64,000 nucleotides of DNA. Origin: Lepidodermella squamata. Lineage: Eukaryota > Animalia > Gastrotricha. Every line of letters begins with the position of its first letter. Position 1 is the first letter of the stretch. Below the pieces are notes generated by a model. The model did not search any database and was not told where the DNA came from. It was given only the letters and a program-made list of their open reading frames with translations. Position numbers and translations under genes: made by a program. Location: contig JBLDXI010000038.1 of assembly GCA_047495785.1 (NCBI GenBank), positions 558,001 through 622,000 on the forward strand, read 5' to 3'. Below, piece after piece: positions 21,389 to 61,990 of this stretch.

Positions 21389-23040
21389 TTATTGCAAATG
21401 AAAAAAACGAGATTTTCGAGGGCGAGAGAGCTCGATTGATGGAAAGCGCAAAAGACGCCCTTGCTCCAAGCAATTTACCGCCCATGATCGCAACTGCACC
21501 TCGTCGTAGTCCACCCTCGATGGGTCACCGCCGTTGATGATTTCGCACAAGTTGGCCATGAGGTGGAACCCGCAATCACTTCCGTTTGTCTGTTGTGAAC
21601 AAGCCACGAACTCGATCGATAATCGGCGTTTAGAGTCACACCAAAATTTGCCATAGCGGTCAAATAAAGCATCGCGATACGTTTGTCTTAGTTTGTTGCC
21701 CTTCGGCGTGAGGCTATCATAAACGCGCACGGTTCGAACACCGCCCTCGCAGTGTAGCGTCGAGGACAGAATCCAGTGGTCTCCGATGTGGTGCGGATGA
21801 ACACTCAAATACCGTGTCGCCGAGTGAACAGGCAGAGCTTCGTATCGATTAGCTTCAGCCGCAGCTGGTTGATTAGGGAAGATTTCCGAGAATTCCGGAT
21901 CCTCCGGCTGAATTGGTAGGTGATCTCGCTGAAAAATTGCCAAGATGATAGTAACGATGTCGTCGGGCATCCATGTACCTGAAGAAGACAATATTTAGCT
22001 TATACAATTCGTTAAAAACAAGGAAAAATTACCATTTGTTAGCATATCATTACGCAGGAAATTCCAGTTCGGCATTGCAACGGGATGCTGCTGCGGCACC
22101 AAGACGTCTAGCTCGCGTGGCTGCTTAGCTGCGACCTCGCCAGAGTCGGCTGGCGATAAAAGTCGTTTCTTGGAGCTGGTGGTGATCGGCTTTAGCTCGG
22201 CGAAAACGGGCGCGGGCGAATTTTCAATCGGAGCTGGAATCCTGGAAACCCTGCCACCCTCGAACCAGGGCGTCAGATGAGATAGAAAATCATAAGCGCC
22301 GACGATAGGAGAGGAGTAGTAGTCGTCAAAGTTAACAGCATTGCTGGTATCGGCATTGCTGGCTGGCGCAGACGTTTCTCCATCAGCCCACGGTGGAAAC
22401 AACCCGGCGCATTTTTGGGGTGTTTTCAGATTTATTTCGCGATTGGTTTCCCGCCGAGGCTCGATTTCGGGCAGATCATCGCTGATAATTGGCGGGGAAT
22501 CTTGGAACAAGGCCGCCATTGGCGGAGATCTGCTGCTAACTGCTGCCGTGCGATTTTTCAGCGCAGCGGACAGGCTTGGCGGACTTGCCAGTGACGTAGT
22601 AGCATTGAAAACGGGCGATTCGGCGACTGGCGACGTTGGCGATTTGAGAGAATGGCCGTTTTTCAACCGGGATTTTAAGGCGATCGATTTCACAGCTTGC
22701 GTCTTCATCGCTTTTTGTCGCGGCTTCCTCGGCTTCGAGGATTTTTTCGAGGATTTCGCAGGCGCTGTTGTCGCAGGCGGTTGAGGCGACTCCACGTCTA
22801 AGCCGAGGCTTCGCTTTTCCTCAGCTTCGCATTCCAGTAGACGAGCAACGAGCTTGCTGCTTTGTCCTAAAAAAAAATTAGGCACATTTGAAATGGATGG
22901 AATAGACAAAAATAGATGGAAAGACATATTTTTTTAATTACCTTAATTTTCAAATTTAATCGTAAAGAGTGGTTATTTGCCCATACCGTATTTGCTTATT
23001 TTCCCTATTGTTGATATTACTACTACTATTAGTGGACTAT

Positions 23041-23075
<35 letters not shown>

Positions 23076-25778
23076 TGCGAAATTTCTAAACAAATTGACC
23101 ATCCCAACCTAGAGTGAATCTAATTAATTTTAAATTTAACAATTCACCTTTGGCAACGTAAGGTTTCAGTTGAAGACCGGAGGCTTGTAGCTCAGCGTCG
23201 TCTTACTTTCCATGTTTACGGGGTCAACTCGCGCCAGCACCGCATTTCGGCCGTCGTTGACTAGATTAACGATTCGATACGGTCCGATAAATCGCATCGT
23301 TCGAACCTTGCCACCTTTTCGATCGGCCCGCCTCATGTTGGCCAACATGACCAATTGACGGACTTTAAAGGGTTTGCCGGTATTGTGGCGACGGTTGTAG
23401 TCCCGTTGCTGCTTAGCCTGAGCTCGAGCAGTATTCTTAGCCGCTTTGGCTCTTATTTTAGTTTGGACGGTAACTTCTTGCCGCATTGTTGTGATAATAT
23501 CATCGAAGTCGAACTCCTTATTCATAGCCTTCTCAATCTCTTCCTCGTCGCTGCTTAGATCGCCATCTCGGCCGTTGTTGTTGCCGCTGTCGCTGTTGGG
23601 ATTCGAGTCTGGCAATTCAGTCGGGTCCAGAGGTGGTCCCAGCGCACCCATCTTCACGTCGATCGGCGTTAGCATTTTGTAGCTATAAATGAGATCGGCG
23701 GGCCTTACGCCAGTTGTTCTATGTTTTGAAGTCCGAATCGAAAATAGGGCGCTGGTGACGTAGCGTGGCCACTCGTCGAAACCGACGACGCGAAGGCACT
23801 TCAGCAAAATCGACTTTAAGGTTCGGTTGAACCTTTCAACCTTTGCCTAAAATAGGAAAAAAAATTATAAAAAAATGAATCTATTTATTAAAAAAATTTA
23901 TATTTGTAGACAAATAACAATTAGGATTCGGCAAATTATCTAGATTTCCATAGTTAAATTTCAGAAAATAATTTTGCATTAACCATTATTTTGATGACTC
24001 TCAACCTCTATTTGACCGTTATTAGGAATCGACTTAACTTAGTGTTATATATTAAGAAAAATAATAAGACAAGCGCCTCACCTGCGGATGGTAGGATGAA
24101 GTGACTCGCTGCTCGACACCGGTCCGCTCGAACAGAATCTGAACAACGGCGTTGATGAACTCCCTGCCCTGATCGTTAATCTGCACTCGATAGCAACCGT
24201 ATTGACGCATGAACTCCAGCAGGGCTTCGGCGACTGATAGCGCCGATTTATCCTTGATCGGATAAGCGTGCGGCCATTTGCTGTTGTAGTCGCCAACGGA
24301 CACGAAGCCGATGTAGCCATCCTCGGTCGATTTAGGCATGATGGCAATGTCTGCTCCCACTATAACCATAGGCCGGTCAGGCACTTCGATCGATTTCATT
24401 TCGGGCCTGTCCTTCGGACCAGGGTTGGTCTTTTGGCACTTGTCGCACTCCTTGACGAAGGCGCCAACATCGCCCCACAGTTCGTGCCAATAAACGCTGG
24501 CTGCGAGTTTTTCACTAGTCAGCTGTGCACCTCGGTGACCAGCGAGCGTTACGGCGTGACTATCGGCACCGTCATCGCCTCCTTAAATATTTGAAAATTA
24601 TTAGTATAGGTAGGTAGGTAGGTAGGTAAATTTAGTAGGTTAATGATGGTTACGGAATGACGAGGGTTTCAAAAAATTGGAAATTTTGAATATTTAGGTA
24701 ACCTTACCCTTATAGAACGGAAACTTGTGAAATATTTAATTTTACTAAATATTCAAAACGCACATCAAATTAAAAAAATTAATTTACGGGCCAATTATTG
24801 GCATGTCTATTCCCAAGTTCTAGGTAGAGGACGTAGCTTACTAACCTTGGTGAACGAGCTTGATCAAATCGAGTTTTTCTTGGTCGCCTTCAATGCAGCG
24901 GCACCATTCTTCGCCGTCGCTTTGCGAAGTATTGCGCCTCCTATGGTACAAGTTACCATCTGCCTTGACGCAGTAGAAGGTTGTTGCCGACTTTCTCAAC
25001 GATCTTTTCCGGTCTAAAATCATAGAAAGACAAAAAAAATGGAATATAACCACATCGCTTATAGGAGCAAAATTGTTAATTATAATTAATACCATATTCC
25101 TAACTCAATTCCTAACTGAAATCCCAAATCAAAACCTATCCTACATCAAATAATAAACCCTAGAATAACAGTCCCAAAAATTAACCCAAGTAGTGGGTTA
25201 AAAACAACCCGCCTCGAATAATAGCGGCTGAAAAACAGCGCAAAACCAGGAGAATCACGTGGACAGGGGATACTGAATCGAAATTTTACTTAGTACGGCT
25301 TGCCTTTTCAAGACTGCCTTTTCAAACAAGTGATGATACGACGTTTTCGTTTTAATATTGCCTCCCTAAAATAAAAGCCTCCTGGAATGATTGCTCGATT
25401 TCTTACTATTGTTCAATTTTCGAACTCGGAAAAAATACTTATATTCGATTAAATACGAAAACCATTACAAATTCTACACGTAGCTGGCACAATATTAAAT
25501 TAAAAACGCCTACCTTTACGTTTTTGAGCCACAGGAATTGCCAAAATCCAAGCAGGATAACGCCCTTCGGACAGAAACATCTTCAGATCGGCGAATGACC
25601 AATGCTCGCCCTTCTTCTTGTCTTCCATCTTGTCACCCTCATCGCCACTGCCCTCGCCATTCGACGGTTTCTTACCACGTTTACCACGTTTCTTACCACG
25701 TTTAGACGCGGGGGTAGGCTCGGGCGAGACTTGATCGCGCGGCTCAACATCGCTCGTCGACGAAATTGAGACAGACAT
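21389..25778 (-). CDS. Ginger1 transposase: YPYY region, H2C2 zinc finger, DDE integrase core, GPY/F motif, C-terminal Ulp1/SENP-like cysteine protease
   Basis: GRYP...FY...GNLY; LVH...GH...YW...CDKCQK; VGADIA, INDQGREF, SYHPQ|AKVERFN; FIGPYRIV; protease motifs DHWIL, VYDSL, QQTNGSDCGFH. About six exons; start codon approximate. Confidence 0.9.
23015..23074. repeat. (TAC)n microsatellite inside a Ginger intron
   Basis: Direct reading of TAC repeats. Confidence 0.9.
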
Positions 25779-44300: not shown

Positions 44301-46752
44301 ATTTAACATCGGTTTCCAATTTCCAGCAGGGTATGATTAAGTTAGTAAATTTCCTCGCCATTTTGTCGCGAAAAGTTCCAGAGGTTTTGCTTACCCCGCT
44401 TTTAATATGCTTCGAGGACTATGCAGCCGCGTTCTGTCAATGTCGCCGAATGATTCTTTGAACCCGCTTAAATAAATTGATGTGCTTTGGTATATGACTA
44501 AAAGGCTCGACAATCTTGTCACGCTTTGCCATTCTTTATTTTTCACTCTGAATTTGTCACGTCCGCCAGGTCGCCTTCAATCCATGCACCTCATGATGGG
44601 TGTAGTTTATGAATTCGGTTTGTAGCAACATCTATATGTATCAACCACCCTTTGTGGAGTTTTGGGAATTGAAAAATTACCTATAACAAGGCGTTTGATG
44701 GTGTGAATTAGATTCAACAAACCGTAGTAGTTCAATGTAATAAAAATAACCGAGTTGCTTCTTGGCAACTCAGTTCCCCTACTCCATCCTGCATGTGTTA
44801 CGACTGTTCTAGAGGGCATGCACTGCCGACAAAGACATTTCCGGCTTTTCATCACTGCCTTGCTTTTTGCTTGATGTCCTTGTTGTTACTGCTGTGTATT
44901 CTTCTGTTTTTTCCAATCAATGAGAACAATTAATTGAACGTTGAACGTTTTCGTCTAGTTATGGGGACGAACGACGATGCGTATTACTGGCGAGCGTATC
45001 CAGCTTGGCGCAGGTGCTTCCATCGCTTCTGCACCCACAAGTATTTCGACTTGGCGGTGGCTGGCATCATTGGCATTAATGTTTTGGTTATGGCGACCGA
45101 ATTCCACCTAATGCCGAAAAAGTTCCTTCTTGCAGTCAAAATTTTAAACTACATCTTTACCGGTGTGTTCATCTTCGAAGCGGTCACTAAACTTATTGCA
45201 TTTGGACCTCGGCGGTATTTTCGCGAGCGGTGGAACCAGCTCGACATAGCCATCGTCGTGCTGTCGCTTGTCGGCATTTTCCTCGAAGATCTCGACAACA
45301 AATTCATTCCGATCAACCCGACAATTGTACGCGTAGCTCGCGTCTTCCGCATCGCGCGTGTTTTCAAGCTGCTTAAAATGGCCAAAGGCATTCGCGAACT
45401 GCTTGATACCGTGTCAGAGGCTCTGCCCCAGGTTATAGCTGAATTCATATTAAATTGTTGTGATAATAATTTTACTCAAATTCATATTTTAGGTCGGAAA
45501 CCTGTCGCTGCTGTTTATGCTACTGTTTTTCATCTACGCCTCGTTAGGCGTCGAGCTGTTCGGCAAGTTCGATTGCACATACAAAATCTGCGAGGGTTTG
45601 TCAAGGCACGCCAACTTTCATAACTTCGGCATCGCTCTGTTAACACTCTTTCGCATTTCAACCGGCGATAACTGGAACGGAATTCTCAAAGACACGCTGC
45701 GCCTGATTCACGATCCCGAATCGCACTGCGCCACAGAGCCTGGCGGCTGCTTCCTAGTTCAAATTCTGTCGCCGTTTTACTTTGTATCTTTCGTCCTCGT
45801 CGCGCAATTTGTGCTCATCAACGTCGTAGTTGCCGTTTTGATGCGCCAGTTGGAAGACTCGCACACGAAAACAGAAATCGACCCGGAGAAGATCGAGGCC
45901 GAACTCGAGGGTAAGGTCGAGCAGATTGAGGCCCTCGTCCAGGAAACATGCCCAGAATTAGTCGAACGGCTACAGCATCAAATCGGCGCTGATCGGGATG
46001 ACGCGATTTCCCTAGTTTCAACCGAATACATCTTGCGCGAGCGTGCGAGTTTCGACGCCGGCCAGATCGGTGTGCTGGCAGGCAAGGATTCGTTGTTTCG
46101 ACCTCGCCGAATAGTCGACCGCAGCCAGTCGGCCTCCACGAGTTTCCGCCACAAAACTCGGCCTCGTCTGCTGACGACCGTCGGTGAAAACGTCGGCATC
46201 TTCGCAGCAGCGATCGAAGCTGCGCAGCAAAAGCGCAGAGATGCCGAAATGTCCCCAGAAGGCGACATGAGCGCTGACGAGGAGAGAAGAAGTATCGTCG
46301 ACTCGGCGGTGCTCGAGCAGGTGTTCAAAGATCTGGGCGAGCAGTTGCATGAGGCTGACGAACGCAGATCGCCTGAGCGCTCAGCTCTATCTGATCTCAC
46401 TCGAAACGCCCTGAGGCTAGCATCAGCTTCTGGTATTGACCCGGAAGAGGCCGCGCGTCTCGTCGAAGCCTTAACCACCGGTCTTGGCGATGAACTGCGA
46501 TCTGCCGTTGACGTATTCATTGAACTGCGGCGCGAGGAGTTGCTCAACCCCGCCAAGTCACGGGTAAAAAATGCGGCGGCGCGCGCCAAAGTCAAAGTTG
46601 CCAACGGCCGCTCGAACGAACCATCGCATCCGCTTCAGAGTCAGTCGGGACAGAATATGTCAGCGACCACGAGCGATGTAGAAAGCCCGGCTGTTGGAGC
46701 GGATGATCCAGAACTTGCGGCTCTCTTACGTCTACGCACGAGTACGGTGTGA
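35321..46752 (+). CDS. Cav3: T-type voltage-gated calcium channel alpha1 (Cav3)
   Basis: Four 6-TM repeats with S4 segments, an EEDD filter (SLEGW, TQEAW, TFDGW, TGDNW) and a gating-brake-like QFSETKRRE... helix. The first exon 35321-35488 splices in frame (AG|G) to the exon starting at about 37402. Confidence 0.96.
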
Positions 46753-47132
46753 TAATAAATACAAAAAGATCTAATACAGTATGAAGCTGCGGATATGATG
46801 CCCAAATTCTGAACTGCATACTCGATTTTATTCGCAATCAATATATTATGAAATAATGAAGATTTCTAATTTTTCGGAGGCTTTACTTTCGCTTTTTTAT
46901 ATAAAAACATACGAATTGTTTATATACAATTTACTTGTACCGAATCATAAGACGAAATGAACCGCGAACTCAACATGGATTCCTTTTGAAGTACCTAAAT
47001 GGTGTTATGATGAAGCCAGACCATGAAGAGAGCCGTTTCATTTCAACCTTAGGACGGGAGATTCCGAAAATATACGTTATCAAATTTCAACGGTATCAGT
47101 GGTTCTCTAATCGAAAAAATACAGGGAACAGA

Positions 47133-48686
47133 TCAAACACCCACCAGCACAGTTAGCATTTTCACGATGTATGCAACAATGTAGCACGTCGTGAGAACGG
47201 CAGCAGCGGCAAAATTATGGCGAATCGTACTCGGCGACGCGCTTTCTGTTAAAATTTGAATACAGTTTGGTAAGACAAGCCGAAGCTCATAAAAGGAAAA
47301 TAATTTCATACTGCAAATGCCGTATAATTGTTCCTGCGTCGTCCACGGGTTTCGAAGGGTCGTCTGTACTTGCTGGGTGTTGACGGACCTTTGCTGCTGA
47401 AGCACCCGTGCCGTGTAGTTTAGTAGCACCTCAGGGCAAACAATGCAGGCCAGACCCTAATAACACATCATTATAACTGGAAATCGAATCTTAAAGCTCC
47501 CCACTCACAGCAGTGCAGTAGCTTTGGCCGACAGTCGGCGTCGAAGTCGTCCATTCAGGTACAGTACAACGGGCGCCCTCGCGTTGCTTGATGGTGTTCG
47601 CGTTCGCTGCAACGCAAATGGTCCACGTGTTGCGGATCATTGAGTCCGAGTCGCCTGTTTCGTCGCGGTAGTACTGGGTGAAGTTCAACGCAGAAAAGCC
47701 GCGATCGCATGCGCAAGTGTGGTCTTCGGCCAAGCAGATGCCACCATTGCCGGCTCCGGATGGCGCATACGTACCTGGAAATGCGATTTCACAAAAACAT
47801 GCTAAGATGAGTCAATACCAGGCCGCTTTTACCTCCCATTTGGCAATTGTCGTCTGTATCACACGAGATTCCGTAATAAGCTTCCTCACATCCGCTGCCG
47901 CTCCAAACGTAGCTCGAAAAGCAAGTGCATGACTGCCAAACCAAGTTGCAGAAGAGTCCTGAAGACAAGCGCCGCAGATTTCGGTTATTGTGTTTTGGCA
48001 ATCTTATTCTTACCAATTTCGGGGTTGCAATCATTATCGGTCAAACATGCGGCGCCGTATTCGGACTGCGCTTTCGTTGACAGGACACAGGTGTTGTTCC
48101 GCCTCTGTAAATTTCATAAGGAAGCAATCTAGATGATGTTGATTGGAATTGGACAACTAACCTCGTATTGTGGCTTGCATCGGACTGAGCCGGCGTAGCA
48201 GTAGGCGCCGCGAGGGTAAGATTCGAGTTCGCCGGCTGAGCAAACCGCGTTTAGCGGCCGATATATTTCTGTTTATATTAATAGGGTAGCATGGTCAATA
48301 AATTTAGCGAATCCTGCTCAAGTTTACTTGGCGAGCAATGGAAACTGTTTCCAGATGTCCGATAGTATTGAGCCTGTCATTTTCAAGGAAATGATTGTAA
48401 TATAAATGAATTTTGGCCTGAAACCACGTTACTTTGCATTGACAAGTGCCCATCTGGCACGGTTCTGTCAAATCATAATACCAGCAAGTTGTGTTTTGCC
48501 CGCATTCTTCGGTTTTCTTGCAAGCTGGTAGTAAAACATTGGCAACATTGAATAGTTGTTGACGATGTCGAGAAAATGTTTACGTTCGTCAAGTTTTAGT
48601 AACGCAGCGGTCAACCAGGTTGTACATCCAAGAATTATGAAGGCCGCTAATACTATATTCAGTGGCATGTGATGTTGAAGCATCAT
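47133..48686 (-). CDS. Cysteine-rich secreted/surface protein (EB-module-like Cys spacing, hydrophobic C-terminus); multi-exon
   Basis: Signal-like MPLNIVLAAFIILGCTTWLTAA; short Cys-rich exons (GCEEAYYGISCDTDDNCQMG, CLAEDHTCACDRGF); C-terminal AAAAVLTTCYIVAYIVKMLTVLVGV. Family not recognised. Confidence 0.65.
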
Positions 48687-49247
48687 CAATCCGATGAGCA
48701 ATTTAGTATAGCAAACCAGAGCTTGATTTTCAGCCTATGCGGGTGCGGTCGTTCAAGATGCCGCGATTCAAAACAGCGCTCACTGAATGATATCCATATC
48801 GTCTAGGCGACTTCGCATTCAAGCTTGCATTCACCAAACTCAGAAAGAGTTGCTAAACGACCGACGCGAAGCTCAAAGCGTCGCTCAAAAAGCTATTCAA
48901 ATATTATATCAGTCATTCAAAATCTGAGCAGGGAAAAGTCTCAATTTACTCGGTCTAATTTCTACGAACCGCGGCTATTCGATTTCAAATTTTCGCAGCT
49001 TGTTGAATCGATGACCAAAAGAAGACGAAGTTTAGACCTAATAGACGTCACCAAGGAAAACTCGAACCTTTTCAGCTGTGATAACCGATAGAGTTGGTTC
49101 GAGAAATTCTTCAACTGATAAGTCTAATGAATTACTAGTAAGAATTTTTCATAAGATCTGAAGTCCGAAAGCATCTCTTTATTCTAGTTAATTTAATTAA
49201 TTTAATTCAGCCTCTTTAAACGAAAAATAGTTGATGATCCGCGACTG

Positions 49248-50226
49248 CTATATTGAAACATGCTTGAAACCTTCAGTTGTTTTTTTGTACAAATCTGGGA
49301 CACCGTCGAATCTTACAGCGTACGTGTAACGTACAACCGCCATGATACGATGTGGCTGTGGTACCCAGTGACTTTCTTCCACGTTCTTACTGCTCGACCA
49401 ACAGTTTGCTTCAATACACCACGTTAGAAATTTACCTTATTGACAAGAACAAAAGTGAATAAGACATATCGCTAAGAGTATATGAGATAAAAAAAAACGT
49501 GCATTTCTTCTGGCAGTGTCGATCCGAGACAGCGCGAGATCTCGTTTGTTTCACAGGTATCATTCTCTGCTCCACGAAATGCTCCGCAGTCTTTTCGAAG
49601 GCTACTTCGAGAGGCTCTCGAAAAAGTTGGGCCGGAACGACGATGTTTTCCACTATCTTCCCGGCGCTCATCGAATTTGAAATGATTGATTTCAGACTAG
49701 CCATATCAAGTTGATATGGCGGCAACGTGACCTTCCACAAACCATTAGCCTGAAGTTCAACGCAGGTTTTGTTAACCTCCGTTGCGATATTTTTCACAAA
49801 AACGATGCGCTTGCCAAGCTCAGCATTGTTGACTTTAAAGTCTTCCACCACTTGTTGCATAAACGCGTCGGCTCGATCAGTGTAGACGAAAAGTAGAGCG
49901 CGTATGGGTCTGCCCTTGATGAAATCGAAAAACTTGGCGTGGTTTTCGCGGTCACGACCTTCGCTGTCGAGGTAACCAGGAATTTCGACGACAAAATCGA
50001 CGTTATTCCAAGCGATTCGAGTCGTGATATCGACCGTAACCGAATAGTCACCACTGCCCTCCAAAATTGCAAGTTGATCAGGGGCAGCCAAGCGGTTGGC
50101 GATGTAACTTTTTCCCGTTCCAGTTTGTCCGTACAAAATTATATGACCGCTGGTATTGGTAGCTTCGTTGCAATAAACGACGTCGGCAGTTAAAATAGAC
50201 CATGTCAACACGAAATAAATATTCAT
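49248..50226 (-). CDS. Signal-peptide-bearing AIG1/GIMAP-like P-loop GTPase, paralog B
   Basis: MNIYFVLTWSILTADVVYC signal; G1 GQTGTGKS, G2 SVT, G3-like EIPG. The last exon ...VVRYTYAVRFDGVPDLYKK is homologous to paralog A and is joined through a probable GC-AG intron at 49436-49502. Confidence 0.8.
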
Positions 50227-50349
50227 CGCAAACCTAAACAATAATAAAAATATAAACTTTAATGCATTATTCATATGGTATTTTGATAGCTTGGTATTTC
50301 CACATAAAATGGTAAAGAACTTGAAATAATTTGCATTGATTTGGCTGTA

Positions 50350-51523
50350 CTAATTGGAACTCGTCGCATTAACCCTGGAGGAATGATTGCCTGGTGGAAC
50401 CTCAACTTCCTTGTAACGAATGTGCGTCCTTGCGTAAATGTCAGCCACGTCATCAAAGCGCATCGCGTAGGTGTATCGAACAACTTCGAACAGTTGGTAC
50501 TGCTTTGGAACCTTTTCGTCAGCCGTAATCGTTTGCCACGTTGTCGAGCAAGATTTCTCCTTCTGCATTAGAACATCAGCCATTTTCGCAGCAGTTCCAA
50601 CTGCGAGGATTACGGTACCAATCACCTGTCGCTTCGATCGTCGTGTACCTACAGATATGTATTTGCGGCGAAAATGGAACACAGAAATATTAGAATTAGA
50701 GTGAAAGCTGGGATCAAATAATACAATTAGTACTGGGCACTGCGCGGCTAACAGATTCGACCTTCAGTCGGGAAATATGAGTAACGAAATTTTCGACTAT
50801 GTCTTCCCGAACCTCAAGAATATAATTATTATTGAAAAAATAGAAAATAATGAAGAAAAGTCGAACCACGTGAAGAGGCTGCTTGAACAGAGAGAGCGGC
50901 GTGAGAAGACGCGTCAATTTGACAGGCAACAGTTTTTGAATTGAAGCCTTCAATACACGCAAGTTTTGCTGATACAGTTTGACGTTGATCTTTTGAAATC
51001 CTTCAAACATTTCAGCATCCGGCGCTTGGCGGTTCAGAACTTTGTTTTTCACGAGAATGATGTTAGGGGCCAGTTGGCTGGCGTTGAACGCCGCTAACGC
51101 CTGCTGCATAAACTTGTCGACGCGACGAGTGAAAACAAATAGCAACGCTCGAATACTTTGATCTTTGAGAAAGTCGACAAATTTAGCTTGGTTTATTCGA
51201 TCTTGATTCTCCGTGTCGAAGTACCTATATGGGTTTTGCCGATTCTTGATGCATTAAAGGGGAATATGGCAAACTTTCAAGTGATACCCTGGAAACTCGA
51301 TTAGCTTTCCTAGATGATCCCAAGCTTCAGCTATCGTGGCTTGTTTCGTAACAGATCGATCGCTTGCACCTTCAAGATAGGGAATTTTCGCGGCAGCAAG
51401 CCGATTAGCGATGTAGCTTTTGCCAGTCCCAGTTTGGCCGAAGATGACGACATAACTGCGCTTGCGATCGCCTTGGCAACTTGAAGTGGCGAAGATCGCG
51501 ATGCAGAAGACAATACTTCTCAT
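50350..51523 (-). CDS. Signal-peptide-bearing AIG1/GIMAP-like P-loop GTPase, paralog A, four exons
   Basis: MRSIVFCIAIFATSSCQG signal; GQTGTGKSYIANRLAA identical to paralog B; EFPG|YFDTE; IRALLFVFT; C-terminal VVRYTYAMRFDDVADIY. Confidence 0.82.
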
Positions 51524-53743
51524 AACCGACGATAAATTGTTGGTGCGAGGCTTTGGGAGTTGAGCTCTTTTACTGTTGCAACCGCTTTTAAAATGGCGTT
51601 TTGAATAACGCAATACAAGCCAGAATGAAAGCTAAATTTCGCGCCCATGGTTTTTCGGGGTCCTATGTCAATAGGCTGTTGGAGGATTAGGCGATCTAGT
51701 TTGTTCGGACAACCTATAGAGTGCTCACTCCCAGTCAAAAACATGCAAAGCCATGGGGGCTATACCTATATATGGCAGGTGATTGTCGTGTCGTAAAAAA
51801 CTGTAGTAATAATTAACAGGCTTTGGATCATCGCTTAACTGAGAGACGGCCGATTTTTGTATACCGAATTTCCCAAGGTTGCTATCTTAGAAGTGGTCGA
51901 TAGGCGACAGAGTAGTCGGTGTTCCTTTTCGACCCTGACCCTTTGAGGCGGTCCACACCTGAACGACTTTTCGAAGCCAAGTTATTCATCAGGTCGAGAC
52001 GATCATTTTGACAGCTGATTTAGATCTAGAACCCCCATATTTTAATTGGTACACATTTTCAAAGTTAATTTACCCTTTATAATCTTTACTTTGTGCGTGC
52101 GAACGATCATGAGTCATCAAAATTGGATGCTCAAAATTAAGCTTTGCGGAAAAAACTCTTTCTCAATAATTACGCAACAATGTTTCCCTTGGCATATCAC
52201 ATTCTTGCAAGGACTCTGGGGACCCTCGGCCCGGCTTTCGAACGTGCCATCCAACGCCAAAAACAAAAGCAACTGCTAGCCCGGCGAAATTTTAAAGCCC
52301 GTGCTCAATCCAATAAATGGCGTGATTAAATAATCATCGTATTAAATCCAGGAAAACTGCTGTAGATTGACATTTGTGCGATCTAGCATGCGCGTTTATA
52401 GACTCATTTTTTGAAGCGTTGTTGAGGAATAAATGTTGTGTATTTACTACCTGTAATTATTTTGTGTTTGATTAAGATCGGAGATCGGGACTGTAAACAC
52501 CGGCTAGACGGGCTAGGGATGAAATATCAGATCATCAGTTATATACTGAAACTGTAAAGTTCTTGTTAAGGCAATTGTATTCCGATGCTCGATATGTTTC
52601 TGTTTAGAATTTCAGGATTATTACTATTTTTAATCGCGGGTAGGTATTCCTGCTTAATGATTATTTTCTGAAATATGAGGTTGTTACGATTTCAAGTTTC
52701 TAGTTTGCTCGAAAATTCATGCGCTGGTATTCCCGGGAAGAAAAGTTCTCTTACAAAGGTATTGTCAGGATTTTTCAATCGCTTTCATAACCTCCCGCTA
52801 ATTAGGAGACCAAACATCCGACTACGGCTGGCTACCAGCCCATCAAAGCGAGGCATTGGCGCCCGAAACAACCTGCTATAATAGGTAGCTCTCGGCAAAA
52901 GAAGCAATGTCATCCCCAATGTTCGTCCCATCAAGACTGGATCGATCATTGGCGTTCCATTGGCGTTTTCGGCAAAATAAGACAAACGCAATAAGACCTT
53001 TCTTTTATTGTACGATCAACTCCATTTGCGTCGTAATGAAATCGTTACATCCGCCAGTCGAACAGATTAATAGGTACAAGTGTTAATAATTATACCATCA
53101 TAATTGCATCTCTCTTCGTTTTTCGTTTCCACAAGAAAACAAACAGCAGCAGTTTGAAGAGTGAATAACGTGTGCAGATGATAATCAAGTTTCAGCAGTA
53201 AATTTTTCAAACAACGTGCAGATTAAACACGATTAGCACAATGCACGCTTTCGCAGACTCGATTCAACAAACAACCGAAATATCTGAAATCATCGATTTT
53301 TAGAAAAACTTCATATAAAATTTTTATATTGCGCGATCTCGAATAAATAGGCATTTGACACAGCTTTTCGTTTTCAATTAATATAATATCACCATAATCT
53401 TGGCTCATAAACTCGCCACCTTAAAATAATACGTTTTCAGTCATGGCTCGAGATATAAAAGGATTTGACTGGAAGTTTTAGGATAAAATAACGTTAAGGA
53501 AGCCCAAGAATAAAAAGAGAACAATCGAAGTTGACCCTGCAATAGATTGCGATTCTGGAAGATTTTTTTACAAAAATTTTATAAATTGGCGGTCAAGCAT
53601 TAGCAAGCATCAGCAGTTCATAATTTTGCGCGGGAATTTTCATCAGCAAAAAATTCGTTGTAATAATGTATAGTAACAATGAACACATAGATATTCCGAG
53701 TACAGGGTAAGGAAAACTTGTTGATTGGTTGCTTTCAACTCGC

Positions 53744-54609
53744 TCATCCACGATTAGCTGGAATAGCAGCAGTAGTAGGAGCCTGTGTTGGCGGAGCATG
53801 GGTTGTCGTTTTTGTTTCCGATGATCCGCTGTCGAATACACCAGTCGTACCCAAAATGATAAGCACAATGACGAGAACGATGATGAAAAGACTGAAAACA
53901 ATCAGCACGTCATTTTATCATAATTAAAGGAGATTTTCAGCAAAGTTTTACCTTCCTCCGATGATTAGTTTCATTCGCATGTTTTCCCACCAAAACTTTT
54001 TACGAACTTCTTTTGTAGTGTTTCGGAACTGATCAGCCTTAACTTCGAGTTCCTCTGCCCGGTCCATAAGGTCGTCCAGCTTCTCGCCGCGGTCCATCAC
54101 TTTTTTGACGTTTTGCACCATGACGTCCTTGACCTCGTCGACTTTCGCCTGCATATCGCGCACCTGCTGGCTAGGATCGGCCTTTGAATGCTTCTCCATC
54201 TGCATTTGCAGCGTCGAACCGAACGACCATGAGAGGCCGCCGGCGCCTGCGTCGACAACACGGCTGAACAAATCGGCGGTTTCGAAATTGCGTTTCAGCG
54301 CTTCGAGGCAGTTGAAAGAGCGCTGCTTTCCAAAACTTGTCGGCGCCATCACGGCGAATGCAACGCCGCGATCAATTAGGACGAAAACAGTCAGGCCCCT
54401 AGAATTATCCGAAGTTAATACATTTTCAGGGAAAAAATACGCTTGAATTACCCGTCGACATTAAATGCGGTTTTCTCTCCACTACGGCTAGTTTGAACTT
54501 GTGGTAGAACGCTCTTGAAGACGGATTCGTAGGAGCCAGGGCCGACTTGGTGGCTGCATAAAATTTGTCGATTGTAGACAACAGCGCCGTATAAAATGTC
54601 TGAAGCCAT
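53744..54609 (-). CDS. VAMP7: Longin R-SNARE, VAMP7-like, three exons
   Basis: N-terminal longin-like MASDILYGAVV...; SNARE motif VDEVKDVMVQNVKKVMDRGEKLDDLMDRAEEL...KKFWWENMRM; TM helix in the last exon. Confidence 0.82.
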
Positions 54610-55100
54610 CGTTGATTTTTTTAAGCAATTTGTTTAATAAAATAAAATCGCGGCTAAATCGAGAATGAAAATCATGTAAACGGACAATCACTTTCGCGTT
54701 TTATTAAACGGTGGAGGCGTCGCACACTGGTGCGCCGAATCTTTCTTCTGTTTTTTCTGAGGGTCAACCACACATTTACATATTATCATTAGTAATTTCG
54801 CAACTCTAAAACTGTGGCGTTTGCTAAATAGTATAGTTATGTACATCGGTACGTACATGCACGACACTATGCACGCATCAAGAAAAGATTAATTATTATT
54901 CAGAGAATCGGCTGCCGTGGCAGTTTCTTTTCTTCTCTTCTCTCGATTTCACGGTGTGTGTATTTCATCATCGTCATCATCATTATTTTATATATATATT
55001 TATTATAGTATTTTCAGTGTAATCCTTATGCAGCGAGGATGGTTGCTAAGAAAACGGTGTGCAGATAGGTTTATTTTTTCTTCGGGACAGTCTGGTTGCT

Positions 55101-56781
55101 CTACGAAATAAGTTGCTCAAGATATGGGGTGTCCGTCAGGTCGCCAACGGCGGCCATGCTCGTTCGCGAGCCAGCTGCCCTCTTCGCGACCTGTCAAAAA
55201 ACGGGTGCACATAGAAAGCGAACTCAGCGCCCATTGCATTTCTTACCTGAAGAACGTCGTTCATGGTGACGGCGTCGATCTGAGCCATCGCCTGTTCATG
55301 CGACGGAGCCAGTTCACCGGAGACGAGCGCGGCTTGGGCCAGAGCTTCGGTGTAGTTCGCGTCTTGTTCGAGCGAAAACAACAGATCGGCCTTGGCTTGT
55401 TGCCTAATATCAAGAAGTTATCAATTTTTGTAGTCTTGAACATTATTATCATGGAGCTGTCATGTGCCTATCACTTCAGCTACCTATAGGCTTATTGCTC
55501 TCTACACTTACTTGGCAACTTTAAGCTCGTTTTCGGTCAGGCTGCCATTTGCGATTTTAGCGGTTTCGAGCACAGCCGCGCGCGCCGCCTTGCCGGCGAG
55601 CGCTGGATCAACCGACAAGAAGAAGCCGAACAGACCGCAGTCGGAGTAATTGTAGTTAAGACCGGTGACGGCGAAACCAGAGCCGCTAGGGAGGGCACCT
55701 GCGACAGCCTTTGCTAGGCGGCCGTGGTTCTGGCTCGCAGACCATTTGACGCGTGGTCCCGCGCCGAAAACACGCTGGAGGACGAAGGCGGCCGGGCTCT
55801 GTTTGCTGCCCTGGGCAACTCCTTCGCCAGCTACGGCGATCAAAGCGAGGTTCGAATCGGCATCCTCGCGGTGCTGGCCGCCGTGATATTTAGCTGCTTC
55901 GTCATTAGCATTAACCGCGACGTGCTTATCTTTGTGTGGGGCCTCAGCTGGCTTGCTGCCTACTGGAAAGTGGCGGACCGAGGGGGGAGGGGCAGTGAGA
56001 ATCGAGTTGGTGCGACCCTTCAGCCAATCATGAGGACAGCCGAATCCAACCAACGCCATGCGATCATGTCGGTAATGGGCATCGAAGTAATGCTTGACTT
56101 GTTCGCTTTCGAAGTTTCCGATCATAAATTCAGGCGCATATAATGAGCGGCCCACAGTAGTGCGGAAAGCCGCCTGGTGTAGCAACTCGATAACACGCTC
56201 CTCGTGATTTTGTTTGTGGAGAGCTAGATCAATTTCCATTTGATGGTGCAAGCACTCAATTTCCCAGTGGTGGAATTCCGGTTCAAACACAACCTCCATG
56301 AGGCAACCCAAAGCTACGTCTGCTTTGCTACGGTCAGCTTCAATGGAGTAGATGATGTGCTCTTTTGTACCGGTAGTAGTTAAAGAAGCTCCGATCTGCT
56401 GCACGGTGCGAGTCAATGCGATGGCTGTCTTGTTCTTGGTGGCAAGGTTTGCAGCGCTCCGAAGGCAATGCGAAACACCAAGATTAAAGCCGCTCTCATG
56501 CCGAGAGCCAGCGCGTACGTATAGCGACAGCCTAGTAACAGGCGAATGATTTTCCACAGATACAATCCTCAGACGTTCCGCAGTCAACTAGAGAAAATTC
56601 ACACCATAGTCATGTAAATTAACCGGGTTTAATGTTTAATTCTACCTTTGGCTCTTGTGCAAGGCGCCCTGACGTACGCGCGGCAGACTGTTGGGCAACG
56701 GCCTTAAGATATATGATGATTAACACATAGAAATAAGGATAGCAAACAATAACTTACTCGGAGTTGAGGAAGAAGCTTCAT
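55101..56781 (-). CDS. UQCRC2: Cytochrome b-c1 complex core protein 2 (peptidase M16 family)
   Basis: SVENHSPVTRLSLYVRAGSRHES...LGVSHCLR (no HxxEH), LHQAAF, FGAGPRVKW, NYNYSDCGLFG, C-terminal TPYLEQL. Confidence 0.93.
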
Positions 56782-58974
56782 TTTGACTTCCGGCAACAGC
56801 AAAGGCAACGAATAAATGCCTACAAACGAACCAAAACAACACATTGTAATTCAAAATCATAACCCACAGGATTTGAAAAAAATCTAAGACACAGATAGAT
56901 CGTGCGCCACACATACCCATGTCAGCTCTTTGATAATCATTAATCATCTCGTAAGGCTTCATTGAAGAGTAGAAAAGCGACATATAACTTCTGAGCCGTG
57001 GCGAAACGGTCAGCGATCAACGGTTTGCGGCAGGAATATATAACTATATAATGCGTGCGATCGTGAGCGATTGTAAATCGGGTGTTAATCGGTATTTACG
57101 CAGTTCAACAGTGAGATGCTGCTTGGCGAGTTGTAACAAGATGTTCATGTAAATCATTTGAGGTATTATCGATTTCATTAATCAGCAATAAGCCACAGGC
57201 TAGCATAAAAAAGCACACAGACGGACGAACATGCTTATGAAAAATGCAAATATCCTGGTAACTTATTCAAACCAAGATTAAGTTCCCCTGATTTGCGGTA
57301 ACCGCCAACAAGGCTGTCAGGAGCCAACAATAATGAGAACCTGAAGTAAGCGTTGTTCAGCGTTCAGCTTGACTTGCGGTTCGCATTTCGCATATGAATA
57401 AAAATAGTCTAAGCTTTTTCCTTTTTTAAGGAAGACGCAAGTAGTTTGTAAGGCGTTTGTAAGGCGTTTGTAAGTTTGTAAAGCGTAAGACGCAAGACCA
57501 TAACGTTAGCTCGCGTTGCGGCAAACGACAAACGACAAACCAAAATTCACAGGCCAGAATTTCGTTATCCGTACTCTTATTATTATTATTATTATTATTA
57601 ATGAGTGTACATTTAAAAAATTTCACTGTAGTGAAGAGGAGGTCAGGATTAGATCACTGAGCATTTTCCACGTTTCACGGTTTGAGGCTACCTCTCGAAG
57701 GCGCAGAAGATCATAACCCCGTACTCTTGGTGTGCCTAAAACGCGTAATTATGGTAGTTAAAGACAACATGTAAAACGATTCTAGTTCTGGTAATTAGAA
57801 AAGGGGTAAACAGGTTTGACCTGCATTGCCAGAAGTTCGCGATATCGGGTCTTCTCTCTTCCCCAGGTGATCGAAATCCCAATTTTGTCGTCCCAATTTA
57901 TTTTTCACACATTTATAACAAACTTTGAAATATTTAAAAAATATTTGTATTGATAAATAACTCGAATAAATAAAATCATATTGCCGCAGGAGATTCTCCT
58001 CTATGGCGCTATCAATATTTCCTTGTGAATCACGTTGATGGTTGATTTGACGGAAAACTTCCAGCAGAATGGTTTTTTTCGCCATAGCATTATGGTTTTT
58101 GTTGATAGCGTGATAAAAGAAAATTTTAGGAAGAAAAATTTTGAACAAATTATCTTTCCCTGTGACGTAATCGCTCTTTGATGCCATCTTACGCTTATTT
58201 GGCGGCGTCAAATATTCAAACCGAAACCTTACTCTTACTTTTGATCGATCGTAATCAGATGTTTCATATGTCAATAGATAGCCCTTGAAATTCTCTTTAG
58301 ATGATATGACATTAAAACTGTCCTATTGTTTCTTTATCGTATGATGTGGGCTTAAATGACTGTATTCTGTCGAGAAAGATATTTACGGAGCTGCCACTGT
58401 TGACAGAAGACATATCTAAGTCATTTGTTGGCGTCATAGTGTTGGTGGTTGATCGTTTCATGAATCGTAGTGTTGTTCTGTGTTGTATTTACTAGCGAAA
58501 TACTAAATTTGAGCTTGGATTGGTTATGAAGTGGCTCTGAAGCTGTTGGTAGAAACTAATGTTGTTGCCTGAACCCTTGTATTAGCAGAACCTGGAGTTC
58601 AACAATAGTTAGTTAACAATAGTTTGTTGATAGTTAGCTAACTTAGCTAACCTTTTCCTTCTAACCAGGGTGACAGAAAGTTTTTAGAATACCGAGCTTT
58701 ATCCTAGATCGAGAAGCTTTTCGCTCAAGCTTTGCAAATGTTTGGGGTTGAATAGAGTGCTAGAAGTGTTTATTTAGCATAAAAACTGAACGGGTATGAC
58801 GCCTAAACGTGGAAAACACCAATTCAATGCTAGAAGTCTCAGAAAAGTTGTTTCACCGCAGGTCCCATTGAGGAAGAAGGAGAAGCTCTCAATCAGGCAA
58901 TCCGAGAGTTTGCTGTAATAATTGACGGTGATTATGAAGCCCTACTAGCACAAGACTATCCGAACGCCTTAGAT

Positions 58975-60125
58975 TTGGATTTGTTCGACCCAGGAATGCA
59001 CGACAACCCAGATTTTAATGTGCCACCACCTGTTGCGCCTCTGGCACCGGTAGCAGTAAACAACTGGATTCCCAACGTTGCATCTGCCATGGCTCCCTAT
59101 CTTGAGGCTGACGTGCCGCTTTACGATTTAGGCCCTATGAATGCAGCATGTGAACACTGCGGTGCGCAACACTTCTCTGACGAACGCCTAACTAATTCTT
59201 CGCCAGATCACCCCGAATTTGCTCAGTGCTGTCAGCATGGTCAGGTTATACTTGACCCTATAAAGGAGCCTCCTCTTTATTTGCGACGCTTACTCAAAGG
59301 AGAACAACAATCGACTCAGTTTCTACTGAATGACAGAAAATACAATAATTGCCTTTCATTTACTTCGATGGGGTGCAAAGATGTCACGCCAAATTTCGGT
59401 GCTTTCAAGGTGCAGGGTTCTCTCTACCAGTGACACGGAGCTCTCTTACCAGATGAAGGAAGTGAACCCCGTTATATGCAAGTTTATTTCGTTCAATCCT
59501 CCTCTGAGCAAGTCGCCATACGCAAGAACTTCCAATACGGATCCGAAACTCACATTAACACGGTCGTCTTGACGAATTTGCAAGAAATGATGTATGACGT
59601 CAATCCATTCGTCCGCATTTACGACTACAGCTTGAATACTCTTCGGCAAGCTCCTGAACGAACTATGCGAATCAAAGCAAGTGTTAACGGACTCGATCGC
59701 CGGCGTTATAATGCGCCACAATCTGCCAACGATGAGGTTGCAGCAATTGTTTGCGATGACGAGTCTGCTGAGAGCTCACATCGAGACATCATTCTTCGTT
59801 TGAAGGGTGGTCCTCTTCAACGCTCTTCAACGGTTCCTCTTCTTCACAAGGAAATACAGAGTATGGATTCGGATAAACGTTGGGAATTCGGTTGACATAA
59901 TCAACAAGGAGACACACGCCTGTTACGATCCCCTAAGCTATCCGATCATGTTCCCTGGGGGTGATCTTGGCTGGGACATCACCATGCAGCGAGTCAAATT
60001 GAAACCTAACCAAAAGCAAACCAAGATTTCAGCACGTGACTATATTCAACATGGAATTTTCATTCGTGGGATGCCTGTCATACATTTGTACGGCAAATTA
60101 TTTCAGCAGTACATCGTCGATGTAT
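58975..60125 (+). pseudogene. Decayed Helitron Rep/helicase N-terminal region
   Basis: LGPMNAACEHCGAQHF, CCQHGQV, RKYNNCLSFTSMG, RRYNAP...EVAAI, RDIIL, YDPLSYPIMFPGGDLGW, GKLFQQYIVD. In-frame stop at 59431-59433, an insertion/frameshift near 59825-59895, and truncation before the HUH and helicase domains. Confidence 0.9.
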
Positions 60126-61990
60126 TCTTCATGCGATTGTATTCTTCGCGTGAGGGCTCGCCTTCCACTGGCATGAAACGGCGCCTGGTTTGAACCGCCG
60201 TTCGTTGCGCTCCGAAGATGAAAGTTTTGCTCTTCGGACGGTCTTCCTCGGGTAGCGATTGGACGAAGAGCGGCCATGTTTTCTTCGTCAATCCCAACAA
60301 CATTGAGGTTGATAGCGGTTTTCCATCCTCCGCCAAGAAAAACCGCCGAGCTGCTTTATCGGAAACCGGGCGAAGATTCGGCGGACATGTTTGTGATAAT
60401 AGGCGAGTTCCTCGACGGCAAACGGATCCAGTGTCAAGTCACAAATGTAGTTTCGACCGATAGTTTTTCCAACTAAAAATAGAACATTTATTAAGGTGGA
60501 ATATCTTTAAATAATTATAAGACAAATGCCTACTAAATTTACAAGGGCCCTCTCACTCAATTTGGGTAATCAGAACTAGTAAAAAAAATTAAAATTTGCT
60601 GAACTTACAACGTGCATGCAAGGTGATAAAGCCGTTTGTGAACTTGGTCTGCTGATCCCAGTCAATATGCTCCAACATCCACGCCGTAATCGGACGATTG
60701 GCATTGCGCGCGCAAATCAGCAACACGCAGCCCAACGCAGCGTCATTCGGTGATAATTTTTGCTCGGCCCGTTTCCTTCGGTTCGATTCGACTACGAAGG
60801 TTGCATAGTCATGCGCGATCCATGGGGCGAAAGTGCGATCGGCAACGTGCCTTGCAGCAGCTGACTCGAATTTGCGTTGAAAATTTAGTTCCGCAATGGG
60901 TCCCTCAACGGTCATAACAACAGCCGAAGCCTTGAAAACTTGAATCGCATTGAAGCGATATTTCAGGATATGATGCAGTAAAAACTGCGGCAGGGCCTTC
61001 ACTCGGGTGTATTGTGCACTCTTCCCAACCTGGTTTTTACCAGCTTGCAAACTGCCCTTCAATGAATCTGATTCACGCAGCTTTTTATCCCAAAAGCGGA
61101 TCGAGAGCAAATCATCAATTGTCTTCACTCCGAAAACTTGAAACAGCCCAATTATTGCGTTGACCTGGTTCCGAGTTGTGGCTTCGACCCGATCTTCGTT
61201 GAAGCCGTAAAGTTTCTCGGAGACGTCGCCGAAACGATCGACCAAAAATTGGATCTGGCGTTCACAACGAGGCAATCGCTCTCGAATCGAATCGGAGATA
61301 GGTGCCAACGGGTCAAACGGCTGATATTTGGATTGCAAATAGGCCCCGTGTTGTTTTTCAAATTCCGTTGGGTTATGATTCAAACTCAATGCCAAACTTT
61401 CGTTTTTCGAGATTTTGCTGGGCAGGGCCAAAATCCAGTACGCAATCATGCTGTACGTGACTTCGGTATTAGACTCCAGAGGAGAGCTCGCGGTCTCGCT
61501 TGGTGTGTTTGAAACAGGATCATGCGCGGCTACATGCTGTTCGCCACTGACATCAGACGTTGAGATCGGGGAAATAGAAACTGACCCTGTTGAAGAAGTC
61601 GAATTCGAGAACAGGCTCCTCGCGATTCGTTTAGACTGTTTAGGTGTTTGAAACACCTCGGCAAAAGGTTCCTCGATCAAGTGACGAACTTCTGGCTCGT
61701 AGCAAAATTTATAGTGATCGGGATTTTCCGCCGCAGAGTATTTTAGATTGCACTTGGGGCACCTAACTCGCTTCGGCGGCTTGGGAACTTGTTTCGCGTC
61801 AGCAGCTTTCGCCATCTTGAGCTCATCTGAATCCCCCGAACAGCTAGCGAACTTGCAAGTCTTCACATGAAGGAACAGATAATCACTTCTGTGTATCTTG
61901 GGTTGCGGATGATCGTATGGGCATTGTAAATAGCGATGACGATCCGAATATTTATTCGAAACCGAGCTTGTTTCAAACCGACCTTTCCCA
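60103..61990 (-). mobile_element. Degenerate tyrosine-recombinase (Crypton-like) gene with N-terminal zinc fingers
   Basis: Cys/His fingers (CPY...H..TC; CPKC...H..FC); ICARNANRP (catalytic-Arg-like box); spliced ITLHAR|FGKT (Lys box); YHKHVR; FFLAEDGKPLS; GAQRTAVQT. One frameshift near 60360, and no H/Y box before the Helitron junction. Confidence 0.55.

Follow-up and report, generated by a model that had tools for sequence, protein, structure and literature searches.

Two adjacent genes of the gastrotrich Lepidodermella squamata encode apparently secreted, AIG1-related GTPases with a predicted disulfide-clamped hairpin stalk

The DNA analysed here is a stretch of 64,000 nucleotides (nt) of the gastrotrich Lepidodermella squamata (contig JBLDXI010000038.1, positions 558,001 to 622,000), referred to below as the window. 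It contains two neighbouring genes on the minus strand, A (51523-50350) and B (50226-49248), which are sister paralogs and encode GTPases related to the AIG1 and GIMAP proteins. The gene A model has four exons (51523-51288, 51224-50867, 50812-50725 and 50648-50350) separated by three inferred introns, and encodes 326 amino acids. The gene B model has two exons (50226-49503 and 49435-49248) with one inferred intron, and encodes 303 amino acids. The features of the two genes, with the basis of each assignment in brackets where one applies, are as follows.

51288..51523, minus strand: A exon 1, signal-like N-terminus, G1, G2 and the start of G3 (open reading frame, alignment to B and relatives)
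51470..51523, minus strand: A predicted signal peptide, residues 1-18 (sequence and hydropathy; GC content 0.48, exon-like)
51416..51439, minus strand: A G1/P-loop, GQTGTGKS (sequence)
51225..51287, minus strand: A intron 1, inferred, 63 nt, GT-AG (restores the PGYxD motif of the family; acceptor score weak)
50867..51224, minus strand: A exon 2, rest of the G domain with the post-beta4 arginine and xKN, and the start of the hairpin base (alignment); its 3' border is 50867 or 50870
50813..50866, minus strand: A intron 2, inferred, in frame, 54 or 57 nt, GC 0.20 (neither B nor the relatives have it in the alignment; composition typical of introns)
50725..50812, minus strand: A exon 3, outgoing hairpin strand (family alignment, hairpin profile)
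50649..50724, minus strand: A intron 3, inferred, 76 nt (the alternative donor 50733 gives 85 nt and loses Cys228)
50350..50648, minus strand: A exon 4, tip and return strand, then the RFD turn, a short tail holding two N-glycosylation sequons, and the stop
50629..50640, minus strand: A furin-type site RSKR, residues 231-234, within the Cys228-Cys261 loop (sequence)
50569..50628, minus strand: A hydrophobic amphipathic segment, residues 235-254, directly after RSKR (hydropathy, helical moment)
50227..50349, minus strand: AT-rich spacer of 123 nt between A and B; ATTAAA lies at 50263, and a strong acceptor that ends at 50234, likely a trans-splice site, precedes the B ATG by 7 nt
49503..50226, minus strand: B exon 1, signal-like N-terminus, whole G domain and outgoing hairpin strand with Cys238 (open reading frame, profiles)
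50170..50226, minus strand: B possible signal peptide, residues 1-19, the alternative being a hidden 51-nt intron at 50200-50150 (hydropathy, splice scores)
50107..50130, minus strand: B G1/P-loop, GQTGTGKS (sequence)
49436..49502, minus strand: B intron, inferred, 67 nt, GC-AG (top score of six in-frame options; hairpin register kept)
49248..49435, minus strand: B exon 2, short aromatic tip with Cys242, Cys248 and Cys253, return strand, RFDG turn, stop

Both proteins carry a series of motifs, a hydrophobic start of 18-19 residues, an identical P-loop GQTGTGKS, then SVT, ExPG and xKN. A first-pass annotation of this DNA had described a tandem pair with signal-like starts and P-loop motifs, about 120 nt apart; all of these elements are found where it placed them, and the distance from the A stop to the B ATG is 123 nt. 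A and B are identical at 111 of 285 aligned residues (39%). Their identity at codon positions 1, 2 and 3 is 0.52, 0.62 and 0.34, which indicates an old duplication and purifying selection.

All four introns are predicted from sequence; the RNA run X1 has no cover over 48859-51891 and carries no weight as to the expression of A and B. Splice sites were scored against 26 introns of neighbouring genes confirmed by X1 (11 plus 15 of 35), all of which are GT-AG, 50-198 nt long and of GC content up to 0.46. The modelled introns have a GC content of 0.20-0.38, compared with 0.43-0.49 for the exons, and no stop or frameshift occurs in either gene outside these intron-like segments of normal size and low GC. 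The last exons of A and B align with a score of 109, which is reached by none of 5000 shuffles (best 49). A hairpin profile made from 20 relatives matches the unspliced last-exon frames of A (E 2.6e-14) and B (E 9.2e-11), these exons therefore belong to the two genes whatever the exact junctions. Just four frames in the whole window are matched by this profile, all within A and B.

A profile of the A and B exons was searched against 1.84 billion cluster representatives. It gave 83 matches at E<=0.001 and 21 at E<=1e-10, 18 of which belong to one family, the other three being ordinary multi-domain GIMAP-type proteins with short matches. A second search added seven further members. The first-pass annotation had proposed a search for the size and spread of the family, and the result is a eukaryotic family with members from the chrysophyte Chlorochromonas danica (P0009), a MMETSP transcript (P0006), a bdelloid-like contig and metagenomes. 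On that contig (locus L001) an intronless family copy lies beside a long repeat protein, which we take to be of a kind typical of bdelloid rotifers. Identity to A and B is 23-41% among the 20 aligned relatives, and the resemblance extends through the C-terminal module: when 104 sequences are searched with a profile of that module made solely from relatives, A is found at 1.5e-23 and B at 4.3e-20. Of the 68 family-conserved columns, 54 are kept in A and 51 in B.

In a maximum-likelihood tree of 29 rows, from which fragments and near-duplicates were excluded, A and B are sisters (support 99/98) and fall, less firmly (88/93), with the groups of P0094 and P0001. The family stands apart from six other AIG1-like matches (99/98), with the caveat that the branches are long. 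One member, P0008, has an N-terminal TIR domain (TIR_2, E 2e-13), which links the hairpin GTPases to innate immune signalling. Four distant AIG1-like proteins (P0032, P0054, P0067 and P0068) have tails that look rich in beta structure. The hairpin profile matches P0068 at E 2.3e-5 and P0032 weakly (E 0.11), so the hairpin may occur in protist AIG1 proteins beyond this family.

No relatives were found in the phages searched, nor in viral contigs or prokaryotic genomes searched with two short patterns each. A word-indexed homolog search with B exon 1 gave no match, and longer proteins (511-2000 amino acids) gave none at 1e-8, which is weak evidence. A literature search, made largely without subscription journals and without supplements, found no published description of the architecture. 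The first-pass annotation spoke of a candidate new effector family, and the family has no name and no description in the literature searched. These results support an undescribed eukaryotic GTPase family related to AIG1 and GIMAP.

The closest solved relatives by sequence are GIMAP4, 7, 5 and 2. GIMAP4 is the best match among solved structures, at E 7.6e-5 with the A/B profile and 3.2e-9 with the family profile. The relative P0094 was modelled with AlphaFold2 from 32 aligned sequences, giving a mean predicted local distance difference test score (pLDDT) of 89.3 and a G domain that extends to residue 163. Toc34 (E 8.5e-6) and GIMAP7 are among the top Foldseek matches of this model. Its G-domain fold aligns with MnmE (Z 15.4, root-mean-square deviation 3.0, 149 residues aligned) and GIMAP7 (Z 13.8, root-mean-square deviation 3.4, 157 aligned). 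These matches, made on P0094 and carried to A and B by alignment, support a TRAFAC-class G fold related to AIG1 and Toc34. The fold searches match the G domain only, and the last exon of A has no meaningful match among solved structures. Models of AIG1-family proteins from giant viruses (Marseillevirus LCMAC103, Hyperionvirus and Pithovirus) align with the family model over 200-230 columns.

The definition of AIG1 used here is that of Lu et al. 2020 (PMC7053062). G1 (GxxxxGKS) is present as GQTGTGKS and G2 (SxT) as SVT in both A and B, the latter aligned to G2 of GIMAP4. In place of G3 (DxPG) both have ExPG, whereas 17 of the 19 relatives with this column have Asp. The beta4 strand of the conserved box and the arginine that follows it align with GIMAP7 and are kept, the PGPH part is absent. 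At G4 (NKxD or TxxD) the Asn is invariant, with no Asp three residues on in A, B or any of the 20 relatives. The G5/IAN motif RxxxFNN was not seen in A or B on inspection of the alignment. No coiled coil or helical extension is seen after the G domain, the P0094 model being all beta after residue 185 save for a short tip helix, and a crude heptad scan gave no clear signal. The Pfam AIG1 family (PF04548) does not match B exon 1 at E<=1; the best GTPase match of this exon is MMR_HSR1, at 19.5 bits against a cut-off of 21.9. Nine of the 19 rows of the family alignment match AIG1 at E<=0.01, and P0008 passes the cut-off (38.8 against 27). The Glu of G3 and the G4 without Asp exclude A and B from the GIMAPs proper. 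The earlier label of an AIG1/GIMAP-like G domain is supported by sequence and by fold; G3, G4, the IAN motif and the coiled coil separate A and B from the GIMAPs. It is likely that A and B work like AIG1-type GTPases, yet by definition they are not GIMAPs.

The post-beta4 arginine is kept in A, B and 16 of the 20 relatives, and aligns with the conserved-box arginine of GIMAP7. In GIMAPs this arginine is the catalytic finger. Activity regulated by dimerisation is stated for GIMAPs in PMC8201404. Two copies of P0094 modelled with GTP and Mg give a dimer score of 0.63 (best control 0.13), with at least 48% contact agreement between runs and pLDDT of at least 66. The two copies meet through their G domains, Arg100 touching the P-loop of the partner; every confident contact lies in the G domain and the hairpin contributes none. 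The mark used for dimers is passed by none of 23 single chains; among pairs, 21 of 30 solved ones from microbes and 17 of 29 from eukaryotes (7 of 16 from animals) pass it. Of the seven eukaryotic pairs without an older solved relative just one does, so the result, which concerns a stand-in protein, may be memory of GIMAP and Toc34 dimers.

In the P0094 model strands 185-219 and 236-270, each of 35 residues, form a long hairpin, joined by a tip of lower confidence and followed, after the RFD turn, by a further strand (275-289). The length of the stalk is estimated by residue count at about 11-12 nm. The family model thereby bears out the C-terminal beta-hairpin with a variable tip that had been proposed from the letters of A and B alone. 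The strand ends both give a pairing register of 455. Cys228 and Cys261 of A, and Cys238 and Cys253 of B, map to positions 215 and 240, which sum to 455, so the outer cysteines of each protein sit directly across the hairpin, in agreement with the Cys clamp of the first-pass annotation. B has a second Cys pair nearer the tip. Cross-strand disulfides are predicted in both proteins. None of the 20 relatives has Cys at both clamp positions; P0006 has a pair inside the tip.

Across the family the tips comprise 16-34 residues between the clamp columns and are mostly basic, with Gly and aromatic residues. They vary across the whole family, variability is therefore a family trait; a tip that differs wholly between the paralogs had been singled out before, and the variable tip stands, but it is not special to A and B. 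The strands of the stalk are hydrophilic and carry charges; in each of the eight examined, the mean hydropathy of one face or both is negative. This fits a spacer better than a pore wall, and argues against the stalk as a beta-barrel pore.

The tip of A is the longest and most hydrophobic in the family. Its RSKR sequence agrees with the furin consensus, R-x-K/R-R, and residues 235-254 behind it have a mean hydropathy of 1.47 and a helical moment of 1.13. RSKR with a 19-mer of mean hydropathy of at least 1.6 directly after it arose in two of 200,000 tip shuffles, for a pattern picked after inspection. P0007 has R-x-K/R-R in an arginine-rich tip, without a hydrophobic segment after it.

The best 8-residue Kyte-Doolittle mean of the N-terminal start is 3.45 in A and 2.09 in B. 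The start of A has the shape of a textbook signal peptide, with a basic residue, about 10 hydrophobic residues and small residues at -3 and -1, and together with the Cys clamp and the furin-type site this gives A three marks for export. Most relatives begin 7-20 residues before the P-loop. At locus L002 a stop lies directly before the ATG, and at L001 an open, Met-free hydrophobic stretch precedes the ATG and is probably untranslated; the family as a whole appears mostly cytosolic. The secreted G domain of the first-pass annotation is thus likely for A but departs from the norm of the family, and is less sure for B. Judged from sequence features, A is likely a secreted protein, while for B the balance tilts slightly towards secretion.

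With a score of 6.3 the acceptor at 50234 falls among the highest-scoring confirmed sites, and a poly(A)-type signal comes after each of A and B. In contigs of run X1 a common leader of 21-24 nt, in two variants and not encoded in the window, is joined at the acceptors of three genes (12069, minus strand; 13317, plus strand; 54655, minus strand), which indicates spliced-leader trans-splicing in this genome. The leader motif had no match in the published literature searched. A and B are likely to be an operon, with B trans-spliced near 50234, and this would account for the 123-nt spacing. An operon implies co-expression, an obligate two-part toxin does not follow from it. The earlier suggestion of a two-component pair, drawn from the close spacing, is not established by that spacing, which is ordinary for operons here.

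Two other gene structures were considered and rejected. Joining A and B as a single gene by cis-splicing fails on inspection, since a donor at the A stop keeps the stop and an earlier donor removes the conserved return strand. A methionine at 50274, as an upstream start of B, precedes the strong acceptor.

The window as a whole looks like intron-bearing animal DNA from a compact genome. An M16 peptidase-family protein and a longin/synaptobrevin protein are encoded nearby, and other frames resemble, and presumably encode, a T-type calcium channel, Bicaudal-C, nucleolin and sphingosine kinase. The M16-family and VAMP7-like genes (53600-56600, minus strand) have an operon-like arrangement, with AATAAA at 54705 and the leader site 50 nt on, at 54655. 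In a DNA run this region is covered about twice as deeply as that of the GTPases and shows many letter differences, which suggests a second copy or a divergent allele. Just upstream of A, 51555-52565 has raised depth and loose ends in the DNA run, as expected of a repeated element. Downstream of B (46500-48750, minus strand) is a spliced gene with a Cys-rich open frame of 378 residues, hydrophobic at both ends and with weak EGF-like matches. RNA shows eight introns in it, and its transcript is antisense over the end of the calcium-channel gene. From their translations, we take 21392-24582 to be a long terminal repeat retrotransposon integrase-like region with a cysteine-protease-like frame nearby, and 58834-60190 to be a Helitron-like helicase region.

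The paired genes are a real feature of this DNA, an apparently secreted and disulfide-clamped offshoot of the hairpin-stalk AIG1-related family. We hypothesise that A and B are AIG1/GIMAP-related GTPases rerouted to the secretory pathway, and that they bind membranes in defence or attack, with the tip of A unmasked by a furin-type cut; we give this account an even chance. It starts from family membership and the sister relationship, which come from sequence. As predicted in the relative, each protein would consist of a G domain and a stalk of 35-residue strands ending in a basic tip with Gly and aromatic residues. Two G domains would pair face to face, with the conserved arginine reaching the P-loop of the partner, as in GIMAP and Toc34, an arrangement that presents two tips. 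A and B would be co-transcribed, split by trans-splicing and directed into the endoplasmic reticulum by their signal peptides, and disulfides would lock the stalks. Cleavage of A after RSKR would free a hydrophobic helix, still tethered by the disulfide, which could insert into the target membrane, and B would present a short aromatic loop tied by disulfides. The weakest step concerns the G domain, which outside the cell would be mainly a dimerising scaffold with altered nucleotide handling, given the Glu of G3 and the missing Asp of G4. The target would most likely be the membranes of microbes or parasites, as analogy with the part of the AIG1 clade in immunity and with the TIR-fused relative suggests. 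A bolder form is rather unlikely, namely that A is an extracellular, furin-activated protein with a disulfide-tethered, fusion-peptide-like tip on a 12-nm stalk, pairing with B as a nucleotide-gated heterodimer with two tips that is fired by GTP from damaged cells.

Several observations weigh against this hypothesis. Among the 28 relatives whose N-terminus is available, just one has a signal-like start, the 95-residue fragment P0026; some of the 28 are near-duplicates, and gene callers are liable to clip starts. P0026 is possibly an independent secreted member from another source; with the remaining 27 lacking such a start, secretion of A and B would be a lineage-specific twist. The first 57 nt of B are T-rich (GC 0.35) and its start has no basic residue. 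A 51-nt intron at 50200-50150 would give B a cytosolic start of family length, and its scores (-3.2 and -2.5) are no worse than those of introns the gene model needs. GTP is scarce outside cells. N-glycosylation sequons were considered as support for secretion and rejected, A has four and B two, within the range of 0-5 in the relatives. The protein behind the structure and dimer models is a relative, 37-40% identical to A and B, and not A or B itself; a single-sequence AlphaFold model of B exon 1 is poor (pLDDT 39.6), which makes its fold search meaningless. Of the eight modelled splice sites, four fall short of every leave-one-out score obtained for the 26 confirmed introns, the B intron is best read as GC-AG whereas all 26 are GT-AG, and Cys228, the first clamp Cys of A, needs donor 50724 and not the similarly weak 50733.

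Some of these points also suit proteins that stay, one or both, on the cytosolic side, through a hidden intron or an uncleaved anchor, and act as intracellular immunity GTPases that grip the membranes of organelles or pathogen vacuoles by the tip. The starts of the 27 relatives are in keeping with this, in-frame hidden introns are possible at both 5' ends (51 nt in B, 45 nt in A), and the T-rich introns of A and B also translate as hydrophobic stretches. The kept P-loop, G2 and dimer arginine would fit access to GTP. According to PMC7053062 no snail AIG gene has a signal peptide, and GmGIN1 is without one (PMC2362128). However, the candidate intron of A, at 45 nt and GC 0.49, is shorter and more GC-rich than every one of the 26 confirmed introns, the hydrophobic core of A, of about 10 residues, is short for an anchor, and the cross-strand Cys pairs of both proteins and the furin-type site of A are secretory marks that the relatives are without. 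We consider a cytosolic location unlikely, while still a serious contender.

The secreted proteins might instead be the parts of a two-component toxin or fusogen, assembled as a ring or filament whose hairpins span a membrane as a pore or link two membranes. The long hairpin and the likely co-transcription of A and B would suit this, and the cut site and hydrophobic peptide in the disulfide loop of A resemble class I fusion proteins and nicked toxins, an analogy for which no homology was found. The charged, hydrophilic stalk strands speak against it, as do the confident contacts of the dimer model of the stand-in P0094, which avoid the hairpin, and close spacing is matched by the VAMP7-like gene, whose leader site lies 50 nt after AATAAA; we regard such an assembly as improbable. 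Lastly, one or both genes could be recently silenced or poorly spliced leftovers, their odd features without current function. Weak splice sites in all four modelled introns, the non-GT donor of B and the change of the G3 Asp to Glu in both proteins would be expected of these, but the open frames, the codon-position pattern of purifying selection, the largely kept conserved columns, the strong acceptor before B and the poly(A)-type signals after both genes are not, and this is the most doubtful of the explanations. The hypothesis of rerouted, membrane-binding GTPases is the one we prefer.

The firmer layer of these results is an AIG1-related family of protists and small animals, in which a very long beta-hairpin, variable at its tip, appears to take the place of the helical tail. 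The hairpin stalk offers a structural handle on how AIG1-type GTPases might reach membranes, an open question in the GIMAP literature. Less certain is that this animal seems to have moved the GTPase out of the cytosol, with the addition of disulfides and a protease switch. If true, specialists would be surprised to see a TRAFAC GTPase at work outside the cell, and among membrane-active proteins of defence or attack a rigid stalk with a protease-armed tip would be a new kind of architecture.

Among known systems, the GIMAP/IAN and AIG1 proteins (PF04548; human GIMAP2, 4, 5 and 7) share with A and B the G1 GxxxxGKS, the G2 SxT, a G3-like xPG, the post-beta4 arginine, the predicted G dimer and tandem duplication. 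They differ in having helices, a coiled coil or a transmembrane anchor where A and B have the hairpin stalk; A and B in turn have ExPG and a signal-like start, fall below the Pfam cut-off and are without the G4 Asp and the IAN motif. Toc34 and Toc33 are chloroplast import GTPases, and Toc34 is the top Foldseek match of the family model, at 14% identity. Toc34 dimerises with an arginine in trans, like the predicted P0094 dimer, its cytosolic G domain is carried on a C-terminal membrane anchor and it is not known to have a long hairpin. The AIG1 proteins of Entamoeba are comparable: according to PMC2823695 only G1-G3 are kept in them, the conserved box and the IAN motif being absent, and Evosea clusters are nearest to P0094 in an Atlas feature search (0.93). 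PMC5884625 links the Entamoeba proteins to membrane protrusions and adhesion. By description they are set apart, with coiled coils or C-terminal transmembrane segments, and were not detected on the cell surface. Proteins of the GmGIN1 type, AIG1 joined to Hint, likewise combine an AIG1-like G domain with a C-terminal part related to processing. GmGIN1 is without a signal peptide (PMC2362128). A and B for their part have no Hint domain. The tip of A, though not that of B, recalls class I viral fusion proteins and nicked AB toxins, in which a basic cut site is followed by a hydrophobic peptide in a disulfide loop. No likeness of sequence or fold to these was found, A and B have no coiled-coil trimer, and in them a G domain takes the place of the receptor-binding or catalytic part.

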